Positions 13,160 through 29,517 of a stretch of DNA of 29,517 nucleotides are shown piece after piece. Position numbers and translations under genes: made by a program. This stretch comes from Candidatus Wolframiiraptor sinensis (GTDB lineage Archaea > Thermoproteota > Nitrososphaeria_A > Caldarchaeales > Wolframiiraptoraceae), in the NCBI GenBank assembly GCA_023261815.1, contig JALNKA010000014.1, positions 1-29,517 of the forward strand, read 5' to 3'. Below the pieces are notes generated by a model. The model ran no database searches, was not told the DNA's origin, and saw nothing but the letters and a program-made list of their open reading frames with translations. Within the stretch, counting starts at the first letter, position 1. Each line of letters begins with the position of its first letter.

Positions 13160-13455
13160 GCTTAGAGACTCACCCCAATGATGAGAAGGGGAGGCTGGTA
13201 GAAAACCTTATTCTCGGCCGGCTTCAAGGAGGCTGCCCCCGCCTAAAGCAGGGCTACGAATAAGAGTATTGCCAGAAGTAGCGTGTTCAAGACTATTAAG
13301 GCCGTGAGCTTTATCTGCGAGAGCGATGATCTCCGCTCCATCCCGGAGATTAACACGCCTCATGGATGGTTTAATTCTTGCGATTCTAGAACCGTCGCAC
13401 CCATATTCTGGACCGCATTCTAGTAATTCTAGGAGAGTCTTCATCCGCTTTTGAT

Positions 13456-14037
13456 CTATTCATCGGCCTGCTCCTGCTCTTTCTCCCCGCCTTGAGCCGA
13501 CTCCTCCAGGCGGAACTCGAGGATCGATTTCAGGAGCTCCTGCTGATCCACCTCGACCCTCGTCCGCCAGCCCACCACTAGGACATCGTCATCCATCTTC
13601 TCTAGGTAGCCTCTTCGAATAGCCCTCTCGATATACGCCTCGGCCTTCCACCTCGGGAGCTTTGCCTCTAGGACTTCTAGGATATCCCTTAGAGGAGCCT
13701 TGCCTCCCCTGCTGGCTAGGATGGATAGGGCCACTGCTAGGGCCGCGACCTCATCTATGCTCCAGCCGGCCGCCACGAGATCTGATAAGGTCAATTGATG
13801 TGAGAGGACTATGTAGAACCTGGCCTTATCCAGATCACCACCTTCCTCGAGGACCGTCTTCACCTCGAGCCCCATTCTCTTGAGATATGAGTTCAGGGCA
13901 TCGATTACCTTCATATAGTTTTTGCCGAGCTTCTGCTTCAGCTCCCATCCTTTGACGCCGGGCCTGCGGTGGCTTCGGAATAGCAACATCGCGGCCGCGA
14001 CCGCGAGCTTTCTCGAGAAAGCCTCATCGCTGCTCAT
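13456..14037 (-). CDS. Kite-type (ScpB/Nse1/Nse3-like) tandem winged-helix protein
   Basis: IDALNSYLKRMGLEVK and IRRGYL...VGWRTRVE resemble Nse1/Nse3 WH-A and WH-B; directly follows the kleisin gene. Confidence 0.7.
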   Translation of the reverse strand: MSSDEAFSRKLAVAAAMLLFRSHRRPGVKGWELKQKLGKNYMKVIDALNSYLKRMGLEVKTVLEEGGDLDKARFYIVLSHQLTLSDLVAAGWSIDEVAALAVALSILASRGGKAPLRDILEVLEAKLPRWKAEAYIERAIRRGYLEKMDDDVLVVGWRTRVEVDQQELLKSILEFRLEESAQGGEKEQEQADE

Positions 14038-14044
14038 TGGCTCA

Positions 14045-14797
14045 TCAACTCCTCAAGGTTATTACGAGGGAGGACGGCCGTTTTCTCTCCGATTTCTCCC
14101 TCTTGGGCACGAGCTTTATCTCGCCCCTCAGTGGATTCCTTTTGACATCTACGTAACCGTTCGTTATGAGAAAGCTCAGGAGATATGCTCGCTCGAATGT
14201 CTCCTCGAACCCCTTGCCGCGCACGAAATCCCAGTAATCTATCTCACCCTCGAGCCTGTATCTCTCGATCAGCTCTTGATGGAGCTTCTCCAGCTTTTCG
14301 GATAGCTCCTCCTCTAGCTCCAAGCTTCCTCTAGCCTGCTCAACATCTCTCCGAGAGATCTTCCATCCCAAGCTTCTCTCGCCGGTTCTCGGCGGCAGGC
14401 TGAGAAAGTGCTCGATCCCATGCCTAAGCCTGTGAATCGTTATCTGCTCTAGGGAGATTGCCGGTCTCCAAGCCTTGAGGAATGCCCTGACTATTGACTT
14501 GTTGTCGAGCGCGATGAGCCTCGCCTGAATCATCTGAGCATCTATGAAGAGGGATTGGGCTCGCTCCCTAAGCCACTTGTGCTGGAGCGCGATTAATGCG
14601 GCTATTCTATACATGGTCTCGGCGTCTAAGATGTAGTGATCGAGGTCTCCACCCTCCTCGAGAAGCTTCCTGAGCTTCTCCAGCAGCGCCCTCACGTTGA
14701 CTGTGAACGGGTCGAGCCCCCTCCTCTCGATGTTCTCGCAGATCTGTATTATTCTCTCAAGCTCCTCCCTCGAGACCTTGAATGATTTCGAGGACAT
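14045..14797 (-). CDS. Kleisin (ScpA/Nse4-like)
   Basis: N-terminal LDPFTVNV..LL..L helices and C-terminal WH (AYLLSFLITNGYV...GEIKL); start overlaps the SMC stop (TAATG). Confidence 0.75.
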   Translation of the reverse strand: MSSKSFKVSREELERIIQICENIERRGLDPFTVNVRALLEKLRKLLEEGGDLDHYILDAETMYRIAALIALQHKWLRERAQSLFIDAQMIQARLIALDNKSIVRAFLKAWRPAISLEQITIHRLRHGIEHFLSLPPRTGERSLGWKISRRDVEQARGSLELEEELSEKLEKLHQELIERYRLEGEIDYWDFVRGKGFEETFERAYLLSFLITNGYVDVKRNPLRGEIKLVPKREKSERKRPSSLVITLRS

Positions 14798-16554
14798 TAC
14801 TCCGGCCTCCCGATCATGGATTTCCCTCCAACGTTCTGGACTAGTATCACGTTCATGCCTTCCTTCACCGGGATCTTTCCGGGCGTGATTATTATGTACT
14901 GGGATCTCGGCTCCTGCTCAGCCACGTTCACCAGGAGCTTTATCATCCTCTCGCGATTCAGGGGGTCCAAGTGGACGTCAAACTCGTCAACCGCCCTGAA
15001 GGGCGACTTGATGTACCTCTGGAGAGCTAGGAGGAATGCGAGGGTCCCGACGATCCTCTCCCCGCCACTATGGGTTTGGGCGTCGAGTAGGACCGGCTCG
15101 GCGCCCCGGAACCCGACGTGAAGCTCTATGCTCGCCTTCTCCAGATCCTCTAGGTTTCTTAGCACTATTCTTCCCGCGCCATCGACTATTGAGAGGATTG
15201 AGTCGAACTTGGGCTCAACGTCCTTCACGAGGTCTCTCAGGAACTTTCTCCAGAGCTCCTTCCTATACTCGAGCTCCTCCATCGCCTTCTTCAGGTTCTC
15301 CTCGAGCTCCATGGACCTCTGCTCCGTCTCCCTATACCTGGCATCCGCGACGAGATACATGTCCTCAGCCTCCTCGAATACTTCTCCGAGGGATGCTATC
15401 TGGAGCCCAATCGACCGGATATCCTCCAGTATCTCCTGAGGCCTTCTAGCGGTCTTGACCCTCTCCCCGAGAGCTGAAGCGCTCGCCATCTTCTCCGCCA
15501 GCTCCTTCTCGATCCTCTTGAGCTCATAGCCAAGCCTCTTCTGCTCAGACCTGTTCTCCTGGAGCCTGTATTTCGCGACCTCAGCGAGCCCCTTCTCATC
15601 CAATAGCACGTCCAAGTCCTTCCCGAATCCCTCCAAGTTCACGAGCTCGCCGCGCTTAACAGCGTCTATCAGGTCCAAGAGCTTCCGCCTTATCCTCTCG
15701 ACCTCGCCCTCATGATACTCTATCTCACCCAGGAGCTTCCTCTCCTCGAGCATAAGCGCCTCGATCCTCTCTCTGAGCTTGTTCGCCGATGCTTCCGCCT
15801 CGGAGACGAGGGCCCATGCATACTCCAGCTCAAGCCTCCTCTTTTCCCCTTCGAGCCTCCTTTTCATCATAAGCTTCTCGTATTGCTCCTTCCAGTATTC
15901 CACCGCGGCCCTCGCCTCCTCCAGCGCCCTCTTCAAGCTATTCTCCTGAGCCTCTATGTCCCTGAGCTTGGCCTCGGCCTCTATTATCCTCTGCCTGAAC
16001 TGCGATGCGCCGACCGCATCCTCCACCATCTTCAGCTTCTCGACATTGTTCTTGGAGGCGAACTCCTCTATCATGTTCTGATGCATTATTATCAGCATGT
16101 TGTTCGGATTTATCCCGAGCCTTCTCAGGAGATGATCGACCTCCGCCTTGGTCTTAAGCCTGTTATTGACATAATGCCAGTATTCGCCCGTCCTTTTCAG
16201 GTACCTCGTTATCACGAGTTGATCGGATTGCAGCCAGGGGATCGGCCTCCGCCCATCAACCTCCGCGTTATCGAAGATTACCGTTAGCCTCGCCGCCTTC
16301 TCACCTCTCCTTATCAGGTCGCTGAGCTTTCCAGCCCTATCGGTATAAGTTTGACCAAGGGCCACTGATATTCCTAGGAGGATCGAGGATTTCCCGGAGC
16401 CGTTGGGCCCCGTGATCACGTTGAGGCCCGGTGAGAGCGTAATCCTTGAGTACTCGTGACTCATGAAGTTCTCGAGGATGACCTCGCGAATATAGGTGCC
16501 GGTGGGCTTGGAAGCCTCCTCCATCGCGCCGGCGGATTCCCCGCTCGATGCCAT
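14797..16554 (-). CDS. Short SMC-family ATPase (Smc5/6-like, coalescin-like)
   Basis: LENFMSH, Walker A GPNGSGKS, Q-loop (MHQN), signature HSGGE, Walker B/D-loop PFRAVDEFDVHLD; central coiled coil; 585 aa. Confidence 0.9.
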   Translation of the reverse strand: MASSGESAGAMEEASKPTGTYIREVILENFMSHEYSRITLSPGLNVITGPNGSGKSSILLGISVALGQTYTDRAGKLSDLIRRGEKAARLTVIFDNAEVDGRRPIPWLQSDQLVITRYLKRTGEYWHYVNNRLKTKAEVDHLLRRLGINPNNMLIIMHQNMIEEFASKNNVEKLKMVEDAVGASQFRQRIIEAEAKLRDIEAQENSLKRALEEARAAVEYWKEQYEKLMMKRRLEGEKRRLELEYAWALVSEAEASANKLRERIEALMLEERKLLGEIEYHEGEVERIRRKLLDLIDAVKRGELVNLEGFGKDLDVLLDEKGLAEVAKYRLQENRSEQKRLGYELKRIEKELAEKMASASALGERVKTARRPQEILEDIRSIGLQIASLGEVFEEAEDMYLVADARYRETEQRSMELEENLKKAMEELEYRKELWRKFLRDLVKDVEPKFDSILSIVDGAGRIVLRNLEDLEKASIELHVGFRGAEPVLLDAQTHSGGERIVGTLAFLLALQRYIKSPFRAVDEFDVHLDPLNRERMIKLLVNVAEQEPRSQYIIITPGKIPVKEGMNVILVQNVGGKSMIGRPE

Positions 16555-16733
16555 TCTCTCTAAGGCGGTTGAGGAATCCCCATATTAAGGGATATGCCCG
16601 CGCGCTTTTCGAAGCATACTCACGAAAATCTCCCAGAATTATCCCAGTAACTCGGGCGCCCCGCGGTAAAAGCTATTTTAGGACGCGCGTAATCTCCTCC
16701 GCTGGAGAAGCCTCCCGTAAGAGCGGATGGTGG

Positions 16734-17144
16734 ATGTCTGTGGAGATCGATGTGAAGACGACGCTCGAGAAGTTTAGGAGGTTCATGATTCTGAATACCT
16801 GCTACTCCTTCATACCAAAGGGCTACCTGAAAGATCCATCCATCTTTCCTGAGAGGGATCCTCCCGGGAGAATTCACGTGGAGGCGGTCTCAAAGTTCAG
16901 TCTGGAGACCGTTAAGGAGATAAAGTTCGTCAAGGCTTATGAGGTCCTCGGGATCATCTACAACTCCAAGAGCGGGAATACGAGCCTGATCTGGAGGCAG
17001 GTTAAGGGGGCCATTGGGAGGGTCTCGGGCAAGGCGTCCCCGAACTCGATCGTGAACCTCGTTGAAGCCGAGGTCCTGCCGAAATCCCATGTGAAGAGAT
17101 TACTCAAGGAGCTTGAGGCCAGGGCTGGGTCAGATGAGGCGTAG
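16734..17144 (+). CDS. Hypothetical protein (136 aa), divergent from the SMC operon
   Basis: Protein-like composition from ATG 16734 (preceded by GGTGG). The upstream extension to 16548 looks like non-coding promoter DNA. Confidence 0.7.
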   Translation: MSVEIDVKTTLEKFRRFMILNTCYSFIPKGYLKDPSIFPERDPPGRIHVEAVSKFSLETVKEIKFVKAYEVLGIIYNSKSGNTSLIWRQVKGAIGRVSGKASPNSIVNLVEAEVLPKSHVKRLLKELEARAGSDEA

Positions 17145-21843: not shown

Positions 21844-21909
21844 GAAATAAGTTATGTTCCTCTCGAGGTTACCTTTAATTAAGCCTCCAGCGTGCTAGCA
21901 TTCCGGGCC

Positions 21910-23049
21910 ATGATAGGCAAGGATGAGATAGCCTCGATTATTGAGGGCTACTCCCGAGATGATTTGAGGATCGGGGTTCTCGGAAGCCACTCGGCCCTAG
22001 AAATATGCAGGGGCGCGAAAGATGAGGGGTTCAAGACGGTAGTGGTTTGCGAGAAGGGGAGGGAGAAGACTTATGCCAATTACTATAGGAGGAGGATTAT
22101 CTTCGGCCGCGAGGTCGGCGTGGTCGATGACGCAATAATTCTAGATAAGTTCAGGGAGATCTTGCGCGACGATGTGCAGTTAGAGCTAAGGTCGAGAAGC
22201 ACGATATTCATCCCCCATAGATCCCTCTGCGTATACGTTGGCTACCGGGCCCTGGAGGATGAATTCAGGATACCCATGTTCGGGAATAGGTTTCTCTTGA
22301 AGGTGGAGGAGCGGGATGTTGAGCGCAATCAGTATTACCTGATGGAGAAGGCCGGAATCCCCCATCCAAGGATTTTCAGAGATCCATCTGAGATAGATGG
22401 GCTCGCGCTCGTGAAGGCTCCTGAGGCGGCGAGAGGATTTGAGAGGGCATTCTTCCTAGCATCCTCTCCTAGAGAATTCGAGGAGAAGGCCGAGGATCTC
22501 ATTCGGAAGAGGGCCCTGACGCGAGAGGGGCTTGAGAGGGCGGTGATCGAGGAGTTCATAGTCGGCGCGCCATTCAATTTCAACTTCTTCTACTCGCCGC
22601 TCACCGGCGAGGTCGAGCTCCTCGGCGTGGATACGCGGAGGCAGACGAACCTCGAGGGAATAATGAGGCTGCCCGCGCCCTATCAAGTTGAGGTCCTTAA
22701 GCACATGGAGCTCAAGACTATCGAGGTCGGGCACATAGCCTGCACCGTCAGGGAGTCCCTTCTCGAGAGAGCTTTCGAGCTCGCAGAGAAGCTCGTGAAG
22801 GCTGCGAGAGAAGAGTATCCACCGGGAATCATAGGCCCCTTCGCCCTCCAGAGCATGATCATCCCGGGCCCGCCGCACGAGGACATAGTGGTCTATGATC
22901 TGAGCGTCAGGGTTCCCGGGTCCCCTGGAACAAAGTTCACTCCATACTCCGAGAATCTTTGGGGATTTTCCATGAGCGTCGGGAGGAGGATAGCGCTCGA
23001 GATCAGGGAATCCTTAAAGCAGGATAGGCTCCTCGATCTCTTAACATGA
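21910..23049 (+). CDS. purP: PurP-like ATP-grasp protein (divergent paralogue)
   Basis: GSHSAL, FGNR, NFNFFYSP and GPFALQ. The Gly-rich loop is replaced by EAARGFERAFF. Confidence 0.85.
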   Translation: MIGKDEIASIIEGYSRDDLRIGVLGSHSALEICRGAKDEGFKTVVVCEKGREKTYANYYRRRIIFGREVGVVDDAIILDKFREILRDDVQLELRSRSTIFIPHRSLCVYVGYRALEDEFRIPMFGNRFLLKVEERDVERNQYYLMEKAGIPHPRIFRDPSEIDGLALVKAPEAARGFERAFFLASSPREFEEKAEDLIRKRALTREGLERAVIEEFIVGAPFNFNFFYSPLTGEVELLGVDTRRQTNLEGIMRLPAPYQVEVLKHMELKTIEVGHIACTVRESLLERAFELAEKLVKAAREEYPPGIIGPFALQSMIIPGPPHEDIVVYDLSVRVPGSPGTKFTPYSENLWGFSMSVGRRIALEIRESLKQDRLLDLLT

Positions 23050-24146
23050 TACCTAGGGAGGAGCTGCTGAGGATTCTCTCTAGATATGATGAGGGGGACA
23101 TCAGGATCGCCACGATCTGCTCCCACTCCGCTCTCCAAATATTTCACGGAGCTAGGATGGAGGGCTTCGGCACTATAGGAATAGCATTGAGGAGGAATAG
23201 GCCATATTATGAGAGCTTTCCGAAGGCGAGCCCCGAGATCATGATGGAGGTCGAGAGCTACAGCGATATCCTGAAGGAGGAGTTTCAGGAAAAACTGATC
23301 TCTGAGAGCGCGCTGATCATACCCCACGGCTCCTTCGTCGAATACGTCGGCGCCGAGAACATCCTCGAGAGACTCAGGGTTCCGATGTTCGGGAATAGGC
23401 GCACTCTCTACTGGGAGGGAGATAGGGAGAAGCAGAGGAGGTGGATTGCGGAGGCCGGGGTGAGGGCTCCAAGGCGATACGCGTCGCCGGATGAGATAGA
23501 TGGCCCGGTTATGGTGAAGCTTCATGGCGCTAAAGGCGGAAGAGGGTATTTCAGGGCATCGAGCCCGAGCGAGCTCAGGAGGAAGCTCGATGAGCTCAGG
23601 ATGAGAGGTTCTATGAGCGGCGAGACCGGCTTCATAATCGAGGAGTTCATCCCCGGCGTCAGGTTCTATCCCCACTTCTTCCTCTCACCCCTAGAGAGGC
23701 CGAATCTCCCGGGGCTTGCGCATGGCAGGCTCGAGCTCCTCGGAATGGATCGGAGGCTCGAGATCATAGACGAGATTTATCGAGGATTCCCTGACATGAT
23801 CGAGGAATACTTGGACTATACTGTGGCCGGGAATACTCCCGTCATTGTCAGGGAGAAGTTTATCGTCGATCTCTTGGAGGCAGCTGCGAAGATAGCATCG
23901 GCGGCGCGAAGGCTCTTCGATCCCGGCCTCATAGGCCCATTCTGTCTCGAGACGATATATCATCCGAGACGCGGATTCGTGGTCTTCGAGATCTCGGCTA
24001 GAATCGTCGCCGGGACAAACCTCTATCCCATGGGCTCCCCATACTCCCCATACTACCATGATGAGCCCATGTCCACCGGCAGGAGAATAGCCAGGGAGAT
24101 AAAGAATGCCGTTAAGCTGGGGAGGCTAAGTGATTTGGTATACTAA
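23046..24146 (+). CDS. purP: Formate-dependent FAICAR synthetase PurP
   Basis: CSHSALQI, PHGSFVEY, GAKGGRGYF, GPFCLE and FEISARIVAGTN. Confidence 0.92.
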   Translation: MIPREELLRILSRYDEGDIRIATICSHSALQIFHGARMEGFGTIGIALRRNRPYYESFPKASPEIMMEVESYSDILKEEFQEKLISESALIIPHGSFVEYVGAENILERLRVPMFGNRRTLYWEGDREKQRRWIAEAGVRAPRRYASPDEIDGPVMVKLHGAKGGRGYFRASSPSELRRKLDELRMRGSMSGETGFIIEEFIPGVRFYPHFFLSPLERPNLPGLAHGRLELLGMDRRLEIIDEIYRGFPDMIEEYLDYTVAGNTPVIVREKFIVDLLEAAAKIASAARRLFDPGLIGPFCLETIYHPRRGFVVFEISARIVAGTNLYPMGSPYSPYYHDEPMSTGRRIAREIKNAVKLGRLSDLVY

Positions 24147-29390: not shown

Positions 29391-29517
29391 AGCCCGGTCG
29401 TCTAGCGGCCAAACCCACAGCTGGTCAGAATAGTTGTGGGGGTTAAGGATCTCGGGCTCTGGATCGGGCTCTCCGAGGAGAGCCCCGAGGACCCCGGTTC
29501 GAATCCGGGCCGGGCTA
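29391..29517 (+). tRNA. tRNA-Gln(CUG) with two introns (21/22: 29413-29446; 37/38: 29463-29482)
   Basis: Acceptor AGCCCGG/CCGGGCT (A1-U72, typical of archaeal tRNA-Gln), anticodon stem TCGGG/CCCGA, CTG at 29459-29461, T-arm CCCGG-TTCGAAT-CCGGG. Both inserts fold as BHB-type motifs. Confidence 0.93.

Follow-up and report, generated by a model that had tools for sequence, protein, structure and literature searches.

The closest described relatives of the system considered here are archaeal complexes built around SMC ATPases related to eukaryotic SMC5 and SMC6. Yoshinaga and Inagaki (2021, PMC8665677) collected 80 'SMC5/6-related aSMC' homologues, 66 of them from the TACK superphylum (Thaumarchaeota, Aigarchaeota, Crenarchaeota and Korarchaeota), and their main text proposes that these proteins form homodimeric complexes. 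The main text of van Hooff et al. (bioRxiv 10.1101/2024.01.07.573240) describes archaeal operons in which such an SMC gene is accompanied by genes for an Nse4-related kleisin and an Nse1/3-like kite without a RING domain, alongside condensin/cohesin-related operons, and reports that in TACK archaea the SMC5/6-related operon coexists with a canonical Smc-ScpAB operon. Here we analyzed an operon of this family in Candidatus Wolframiiraptor sinensis, whose SMC protein, at 585 amino acids (aa), is about half the usual length. The operon occupies positions 13456 to 16554 of a 29,517-nucleotide stretch of DNA (contig JALNKA010000014.1, hereafter the window), which is contig C18 of a 1.18-Mb assembly with a completeness of 92%; the names of close homologues point to Aigarchaeota/Caldarchaeales. 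We consider it probable that the operon encodes this archaeon's second SMC complex, in which a homodimeric SMC5/6-related SMC, an Nse4-like kleisin and a dimer of Nse1/3-like kites would act as a DNA clamp whose arms are paired at their tips.

The operon and the parts of it that matter for the argument are as follows.

14797..16554, minus strand: short SMC5/6-related SMC ATPase, 585 aa; head formed by residues 21-181 and 459-582, antiparallel coiled-coil arm by residues 184-455
14045..14797, minus strand: putative Nse4-like kleisin, 250 aa, whose start codon overlaps the SMC stop codon
13456..14037, minus strand: predicted Nse1/Nse3-like kite (tandem winged helix), 193 aa, without a RING, from an AlphaFold2 model and Foldseek
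15637..15654, minus strand: codons of the predicted apex loop, residues 301-306 (RGELVN), where the coiled coil turns (DSSP on the model)
15565..15702, minus strand: codons of the predicted apex dimer interface, residues 285-330, a candidate hinge substitute (two-copy fold of residues 200-440)

The SMC and kleisin open reading frames (ORFs) share base 14797 in a TAATG stop/start overlap of 1 base, and the gap between kleisin and kite genes is 7 bases. A preliminary description of this DNA, made from its letters, had named the trio and its layout together with the motifs GPNGSGKSSI...ALG, HSGGE, FLLALQ, WSIDEV and GWRTRVE. All were confirmed in the ORF translations, where PFRAVDEFDVHLDPLN, AVKRGELVNLEGFG and IDALNSYLKRMGLEVK, which it also quoted, are likewise present. 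By comparison of sequences the three ORFs are real genes and not chance ORFs, because they have hundreds of same-length homologues and 38 of the 40 genomes examined preserve the gene order.

The SMC protein matches Pfam SMC_N (E = 2.8e-34), and its ABC-type head contains all of Walker A, Q-loop, signature motif and Walker B. Across 48 family members, G49-S56 is nearly invariant, and Q159, S496-E499 and D523-E524 are invariant. A phmmer search of the PDB ranked Smc5 first (1.3e-35), then Smc6 (1.1e-27) and Pyrococcus Smc (4.8e-27), with the SMCs of cohesin and condensin at lower ranks, followed by Rad50 (about 1e-8). The top NCBIfam model was SMC_prok_A, with 201 bits against a cut-off of 729. 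Scanning 1.84 billion representatives with HMMER, we found a dense family at 36-57% identity, mostly of 548-685 aa with a few members of 982-1047 aa. Scores fall from above 300 bits to about 136 bits past this archaeal family, and the first named proteins beyond the drop are eukaryotic SMC6 and SMC5, with a Bathyarchaeia 'chromosome segregation protein SMC' coming later. A search for related loci relied on a generic Walker A pattern; the two best-scoring of its 78 loci are family members (L009, 45% identity, E = 9e-140; L010, 38%, 5e-126), and the remaining 76 scored far lower, those inspected being canonical SMCs, many of them bacterial. It was replaced by a search of genomes.

Phylogeny of the heads gave the same grouping. 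In a tree built with IQ-TREE under LG+C20 (56 rows, 382 columns) and rooted on the Rad50-like protein of the same genome, the window family joined eukaryotic SMC5 and SMC6 in a clade of 41 rows with 100/99 support, apart from 14 canonical archaeal and bacterial SMCs that include the genome's own 1147-aa SMC. A quick tree of 102 rows contained the same clade (Shimodaira-Hasegawa-like approximate likelihood ratio test, 98). Individual motifs follow suit: Walker B reads DEFDVHLD in the window SMC and DEFDV.(L/M)D in the family, as in SMC6 and unlike the canonical SMC of this genome, and the QYIIITP strand (family Q(Y/F)..(I/L/V)TP) is common to SMC5 and SMC6, whereas the canonical SMCs of these archaea have ..ISL. 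The TP variant, shared with eukaryotic Smc5/6, sits on the strand preceding the H-loop position.

The arm is where the protein departs from known SMCs. In an AlphaFold2 model made from a 48-sequence alignment (mean predicted local distance difference test score, pLDDT, 88.7), DSSP assigned a helix at residues 184-300, a loop at 301-306 and return helices at 307-362, 372-388 and 396-455. Helix 184-300 pairs with 307-455 in an antiparallel intramolecular coiled coil with strands of 117 and 149 residues, and the six-residue loop is its sole turn. In this model, then, the SMC apex is a bare helical hairpin without a hinge domain. A Pfam scan at E <= 1 found no SMC_hinge match in the window SMC; that model misses eukaryotic SMC5/6 hinges too, so its silence alone is no proof of hinge loss, and for this reason we base the claim on the AlphaFold2 model. 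The 585 residues include no cysteine, and the protein therefore has no CxxC zinc hook.

Between its head segments the window SMC has 190 residues, versus 598-716 in the eukaryotic SMC5/6 proteins used and 765 in canonical SMC. At the textbook coiled-coil rise of about 0.15 nm per residue, an arm of ~117 residues would be about 17 nm long. The length reported for canonical SMC arms is 47-50 nm. The return strand is broken at residues 363-371 and 389-395, where an SMC joint would lie, and the top fold match of the whole model is 5xei (4.4e-26; template modelling scores 0.62/0.69), an engineered construct of Pyrococcus Smc that comprises head, coiled coil and joint; the next matches are Smc5/6 head regions. 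The predicted fold looks like that of an SMC cut just past the joint. Aligned with one another, family members differ in length solely through insertions at the apex loop, residues 301-306.

We predicted the fold of two copies of arm residues 200-440, supplying the family alignment, and obtained a score of 0.67 versus 0.22 for the best of three controls. In calibration, a mark of this kind was reached by 20 of 30 proteins that form same-chain pairs and by 1 of 23 single-chain proteins, counts that hold only roughly for the custom alignment used here. The runs share at least 80% of contacts, with a partner pLDDT of at least 87. Confident contacts between the arms are confined to residues 285-330 and residue 380. 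Residues 318, 321, 322, 325, 326 and 329 each meet their own counterpart in the other copy, and residues 285-296 contact 310-318 of the partner copy, keeping the register that these segments have inside a single chain. Because of the same-residue contacts the predicted bundle is parallel and in register. The arm tips thus probably form a four-helix bundle of this kind, which would put both heads at one end and take the place of the hinge. Positions 310, 314, 317, 318, 322, 326 and 329 are hydrophobic or small in all 48 family members, and conservation at 310-330, on the returning helix, persists in members with long loop inserts. Judged from the alignment, this segment has more hydrophobic positions than a two-stranded coiled coil requires.

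For the 250-aa protein, a profile of 30 homologues searched against the PDB found yeast Nse4 first (1.5e-5), followed by human EID3 (0.031) and ScpA (0.27-0.63). Pfam Nse4_C matches 21 of the 30 members at E <= 0.1 (best 9.9e-7), the Nse4_C label is already attached to 6 of 107 database homologues, and eukaryotic Nse4 clusters in the ESM Atlas score 0.90 with the kleisin. These comparisons identify the protein as an Nse4-like kleisin with a putative C-terminal winged-helix domain of the Nse4_C/ScpA type. The 193-aa third protein matches no Pfam family, and we turned to a fold search because its profile found no kite by sequence. With an AlphaFold2 model (pLDDT 78.9), Foldseek ranked MAGE-G1/NSE1 first in the PDB (2.6e-6), then Nse1-Nse3-Nse4 and MAGE-A4, then MukE, ScpB and JetB, and every one of the top ten matches is a kite (Nse1, Nse3/MAGE, MukE, ScpB). 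On the strength of the model, we assign the third protein to the kites, with Nse1/Nse3 as its closest kin; containing no cysteine, it lacks a RING. Much of the preliminary description is borne out by these results: it had proposed heads more like those of Smc5/6 than those of canonical Smc or Rad50, a half-length SMC turning at a string it named with neither hinge nor zinc hook, a kleisin, and an Nse1/Nse3-like kite without a RING.

Three frames of the genome pass the SMC_N cut-off, namely one SMC5/6-type protein, one canonical SMC and one Rad50-like protein. Because the genome has a single SMC gene of the SMC5/6 type, the window SMC is probably a homodimer. The canonical cluster (contig C4, 18491-23307, minus strand) comprises the canonical SMC (1147 aa if counted from its likely start), an ORF of 229 aa that can be called ScpA-like by position only, and ScpB (PF04079, 1.8e-35). 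The genome thus carries two complete SMC gene sets. Around the operon in the window lie housekeeping genes (Alba, L44e, aIF2alpha, STT3, a GTPase, NAD kinase, PurP, aIF5A and GlnA), and a Pfam scan of the 26 flanking window ORFs found no nuclease, effector or defence gene, in agreement with the earlier observation that no JetD-like nuclease is adjacent.

Of 401 genomes sampled from the phylum, 198 encode the kite (147 of the 334 of high quality). All 24 genomes of the archaeon's own family have it, as do 35 of 35 from three other families of the order, and it was not found in several whole families of the 401-genome sample. From the 198 kite-positive genomes, among the places listed, we picked 40 for family diversity. 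The order SMC-kleisin-kite is kept in 38 of these, with SMC ORFs of 572-756 aa, and in the remaining two the short SMC has a different location, in open frames of 607 and 599 aa; the short hingeless form is accordingly found in 40 of the 40 genomes examined and is the usual state in this phylum. Named family members include proteins from Korarchaeota (555 aa), Bathyarchaeota (685 aa) and a Halobacteria metagenome-assembled genome (570 aa). At the two loci with a displaced SMC (L097 in genome G333 and L099 in genome G039), kleisin and kite are kept, and the SMC is found about 6.5 kb off on the other strand in one and on a different contig in the other. At L097 the kleisin and kite genes are also separated by two unrelated ORFs.

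Longer relatives bear on how the hairpin apex arose. Three of them, P0371, P0375 and P0393 (1016-1047 aa), share a conserved C(D/E)(K/R)CGS near the midpoint of the linker, which looks like a zinc hook at the hinge site, judging by the motif itself; among the 56 rows examined, CxxC occurs in none of the 50 with linkers of up to 306 residues. P0371 and P0375 nest within the short forms with 100/100 support in the IQ-TREE analysis, and P0393 is absent from both trees. The long relative P0402 falls at the base of the archaeal group, in an uncertain placement, and has a Pro/Gly-rich centre with a weak SMC_hinge match (E = 0.045, residues 424-529). Deeper on the SMC5/6-side clade, P0427 (835 aa) has a clear hinge (4.6e-11). 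Aligned with hhalign to the centres of SMC5, SMC6 and canonical SMCs, the centres of the long archaeal relatives, four sequences only, gave probabilities below 3%.

Canonical SMC has a hinge, as does eukaryotic SMC5/6. Because long forms nest among short ones, a deep relative has a weak hinge match, and both canonical SMC and SMC5/6 are long, the short form appears to be derived. The hinge, we infer, looks ancestral and the hairpin apex derived, which speaks against the label 'ancestral-type' given to the complex in the preliminary description. The apex also looks modular and remodelled more than once. Deeper on the SMC5/6 side, next to P0427, branches another lineage of short SMCs (P0420 and P0425, 628-633 aa, no CxxC), so the SMC itself may have been shortened repeatedly.

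Upstream of the SMC gene, the operon is separated from a conserved divergent gene by one further feature.

16555..16733, no strand: intergenic stretch between the operon and the conserved divergent gene, a presumed promoter region (from start-site homology)

The divergent ORF is 198 aa long, and its likely start is Met63 at 16734 because the homology in six relatives begins only at residues 55-65. Read from there (16734-17144, plus strand), the neighbour has no Pfam or PADLOC family and a negligible NCBIfam match (E = 0.092); of 40 related loci, 6 have it beside their SMC gene. On the other side, a 78-aa ORF just downstream of the kite (13208-13444, minus strand) was rejected as a fourth subunit and is probably not a gene, with zero Pfam, NCBIfam or PADLOC matches and zero tblastn matches in the 40 related loci. 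Farther away in the window are two adjacent paralogues, each with DUF1246 and DUF1297 (21892-24146, plus strand; 385 and 366 aa), and an ARAGORN-predicted tRNA-Gln (CTG) at 29422-29517 (plus strand), which runs to the window end and whose call extends one base past it. Rfam gave no family at threshold anywhere in the window.

In one library that carries the label metatranscriptome, contigs reach 29 of the 30 bins as fragments that each differ by 4-26 letters, and 16555..16733 is the sole bin of the 30 without depth. Two raw-read runs gave 0 reads and a third gave 30, half of them only partly on the stretch. One RNA-library contig of 1637 bases spans the kleisin/SMC junction and skips 118 bases (14328-14447) within the kleisin gene. 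The skip is not a multiple of three; strain variation, a damaged copy or an artefact of assembly could account for it.

The explanation that we consider probable, a tip-paired second SMC complex, would work as follows. Two SMC heads would sandwich ATP, and the kleisin would link one SMC's neck to its partner's cap while carrying the kite dimer. DNA would be clamped on the engaged heads, as in solved structures of Smc5/6, cohesin and MukBEF. The arm tips would probably be held by the parallel four-helix bundle (about residues 285-330) in place of a hinge, and the complex would still form a small closed ring or rod. Its role would be that of a clamp on, or entrapment device for, chromosomal DNA in chromosome maintenance or repair, and not that of a long-range loop extruder or a defence system. 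We hold less firmly, as something short of probable, to the wider proposal that the SMC5/6-related complexes of Thermoproteota are natural 'mini-SMCs' with ~17 nm arms closed by a hinge-free four-helix tip bundle, whose apex can be swapped, being a hairpin in most, a central CxxC in some long Bathyarchaeia and a residual hinge in others.

Several observations count against this explanation or blunt its evidence. With regard to the heads, the segments were excised with hidden Markov models built from the window family itself, both trees were drawn without SMC1-4, MukB/JetC, RecN, ASRP/ClsN or named Asgard sequences, and the fold search, with the Pyrococcus construct in first place, does not separate Smc5/6 from canonical Smc. 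Taken alone, the window kleisin reaches only E = 0.0093 and 16.6 bits with Nse4_C, under the cut-off of 26; the kite profile (25 sequences) retrieved no Nse1/Nse3 or other kite from PDB sequences, only a nuclease at E = 0.12; and, in the canonical cluster, Pfam gives no match at E <= 0.01 for the 229-aa ORF that sits where ScpA would. Apex length and sequence vary greatly across the family. Arm-arm pairing, the sole subunit contact modelled, expresses the confidence of a model of a kind that readily lays coiled coils side by side. Finally, the RNA-library data indicate neither transcription nor its absence, and the cellular function is wholly a matter of inference.

The most serious competitor keeps the same subunits and dispenses with apex pairing. 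As the preliminary description proposed in stating that the complex cannot close a ring, two SMCs would be joined by ATP-engaged heads and the kleisin, with open arms, giving a DNA clamp at the level of the heads whose sole compartment is that of the kleisin, without an SMC lumen. Such an open clamp would suit the lack of a hinge fold, Pfam hinge or CxxC and an apex loop that varies in length and sequence, and engineered Smc constructs of head and joint fold alone, 5xei being the top match. Against it stand the two-copy arm prediction, which did better than its controls and shows a localized, symmetric interface, and positions 310-330, whose extra hydrophobic residues are conserved even in members with long apex inserts. 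We regard the open clamp as unlikely, and with two-copy scores of 0.67 versus 0.22 the assertion that no ring can close has become doubtful, as far as the model can be trusted.

Other explanations change the nature of the system and are far less credible. The genes could encode an anti-phage or anti-plasmid defence system that, like MADS, Lamassu (LmuB) or Wadjet (JetABC), is built around an SMC-like ATPase: PADLOC reports mad3 at 113.6 bits and an end-to-end LmuB match at 86.6 bits, and JetB is among the fold matches of the kite. These scores are nevertheless far below those within the family (above 400 bits) and below that of SMC_prok_A (201 bits), the best JetC model reaches 24 bits, and the partners' only models are JetA for the kleisin (E = 0.0067) and WYL for the kite (E = 0.0079). 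The housekeeping neighbourhood, with neither effector nor JetD-like nuclease, and the presence in every sampled genome of the archaeon's own family and of three others of its order point to vertical, core-like inheritance, unlike that of defence islands, making a defence role very improbable. Slightly less probable still is a short SMC without a complex of its own that pairs with or regulates the canonical 1147-aa Smc. Both SMC-family heads occur in one cell and eukaryotic SMC complexes are heterodimers, but each SMC gene adjoins its own partner genes, the arms differ about four-fold in length (190 versus 765 residues), and the main texts of PMC8665677 and bioRxiv 10.1101/2024.01.07.573240 argue for separate homodimers. 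We give the least credence of all to membership in ASRP (ClsN/coalescin, Sph) or kinship with Rad50 or arcadin-4; the preliminary description had mentioned ClsN and arcadin-4 as short SMC-like proteins. The likeness in size stands, with 585 aa close to the 593 positions of the ASRP model, and there are weak NCBIfam matches to ASRP, Rad50 and arcadin-4. A family relationship does not, as all these scores are far under their cut-offs (ASRP, 76.7 bits versus 300; Rad50 models, at most 64 versus 700-1087; arcadin-4, 29 versus 860; likewise recN, 29 versus 408), the cysteine-free SMC has no CxxC hook, and its partners are a kleisin and a kite.

In current models of SMC action, the hinge and the ~50-nm arm are central to dimerization, DNA gating and loop extrusion. 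If the wider 'mini-SMC' proposal holds, the sister lineage of eukaryotic Smc5/6 works without a hinge and without most of the arm, and a small three-protein system becomes available in which to ask which activities (clamping, entrapment or translocation) need arm or hinge. At 585, 250 and 193 residues, the complex would be convenient for structural and single-molecule study of the minimal requirements of an SMC, and its architecture bears on the form of the archaeal Smc5/6 ancestor.

How the locus compares with known systems can now be stated. With the published archaeal SMC5/6-related operons it shares the family and the three-gene set, with no difference in kind. The supplementary table of PMC8665677 already lists PNV77659.1 (P0372 cluster, 555 aa) and RLI38935.1 (P0371 cluster, 1047 aa, the CxxC form), and the family and this type of three-gene operon had already been described in PMC8665677 and the main text of bioRxiv 10.1101/2024.01.07.573240. 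Neither main text mentions hinge loss or short length, which the preprint's supplement may treat, and our full-text literature searches found no report of a hingeless archaeal SMC5/6-like protein. The operon is therefore a member of a published family; its half-length hingeless build, how general this is in the phylum and the modular apex are the points for which we found no published account.

The construct 5xei and the Mini-Smc of Buermann et al. (2017, PMC5344682) are engineered, whereas the window SMC is natural and has its own apex. The survey in that paper gives natural arm-length modes of 163, 238, 341, 423 and 515 aa, with 272 aa for Smc5/6, and none of these values is as short as either arm strand of the window SMC (117 and 149 residues). 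As described there, the survey was seeded with hinge alignments, so that hingeless forms were undetectable in it. The only report of a 'hinge-less SMC' that we found in the literature concerns homologues from marine Actinobacteria (PMC12153180), which are likewise described as SMC-family ATPases with a coiled coil and no hinge domain. Unlike the window SMC, those proteins are bacterial and related to canonical SMC, not SMC5/6, and the article reports them without kleisin or kite and not beside a regular SMC.

Lamassu LmuB is an SMC-like ATPase of similar length that aligns end to end, and Wadjet JetB is a kite; at the window neither LmuA nor JetD is linked, the context is that of a vertically inherited core genome, and the heads group with SMC5/6. 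RecN and Rad50/ASRP are SMC-like proteins that pair through the coiled-coil tip or a zinc hook. The window SMC may work in a manner similar to RecN and to Rad50/ASRP, in that the apex of a short or hook-tipped arm joins two ATPases without a hinge domain, while differing from them in scoring below their cut-offs, in lacking CxxC and in having a kleisin and a kite, not Mre11, as partners. The greatest likeness is to eukaryotic Smc5/6, to which the heads are closest in both sequence and tree, the predicted kleisin in its Nse4-like C-terminal domain and the predicted kite in its Nse1/Nse3/MAGE-like winged helices. Where eukaryotic Smc5/6 has an Smc5-Smc6 heterodimer, a hinge and the RING of Nse1, the set encoded in the window has one such SMC, no hinge and no RING.

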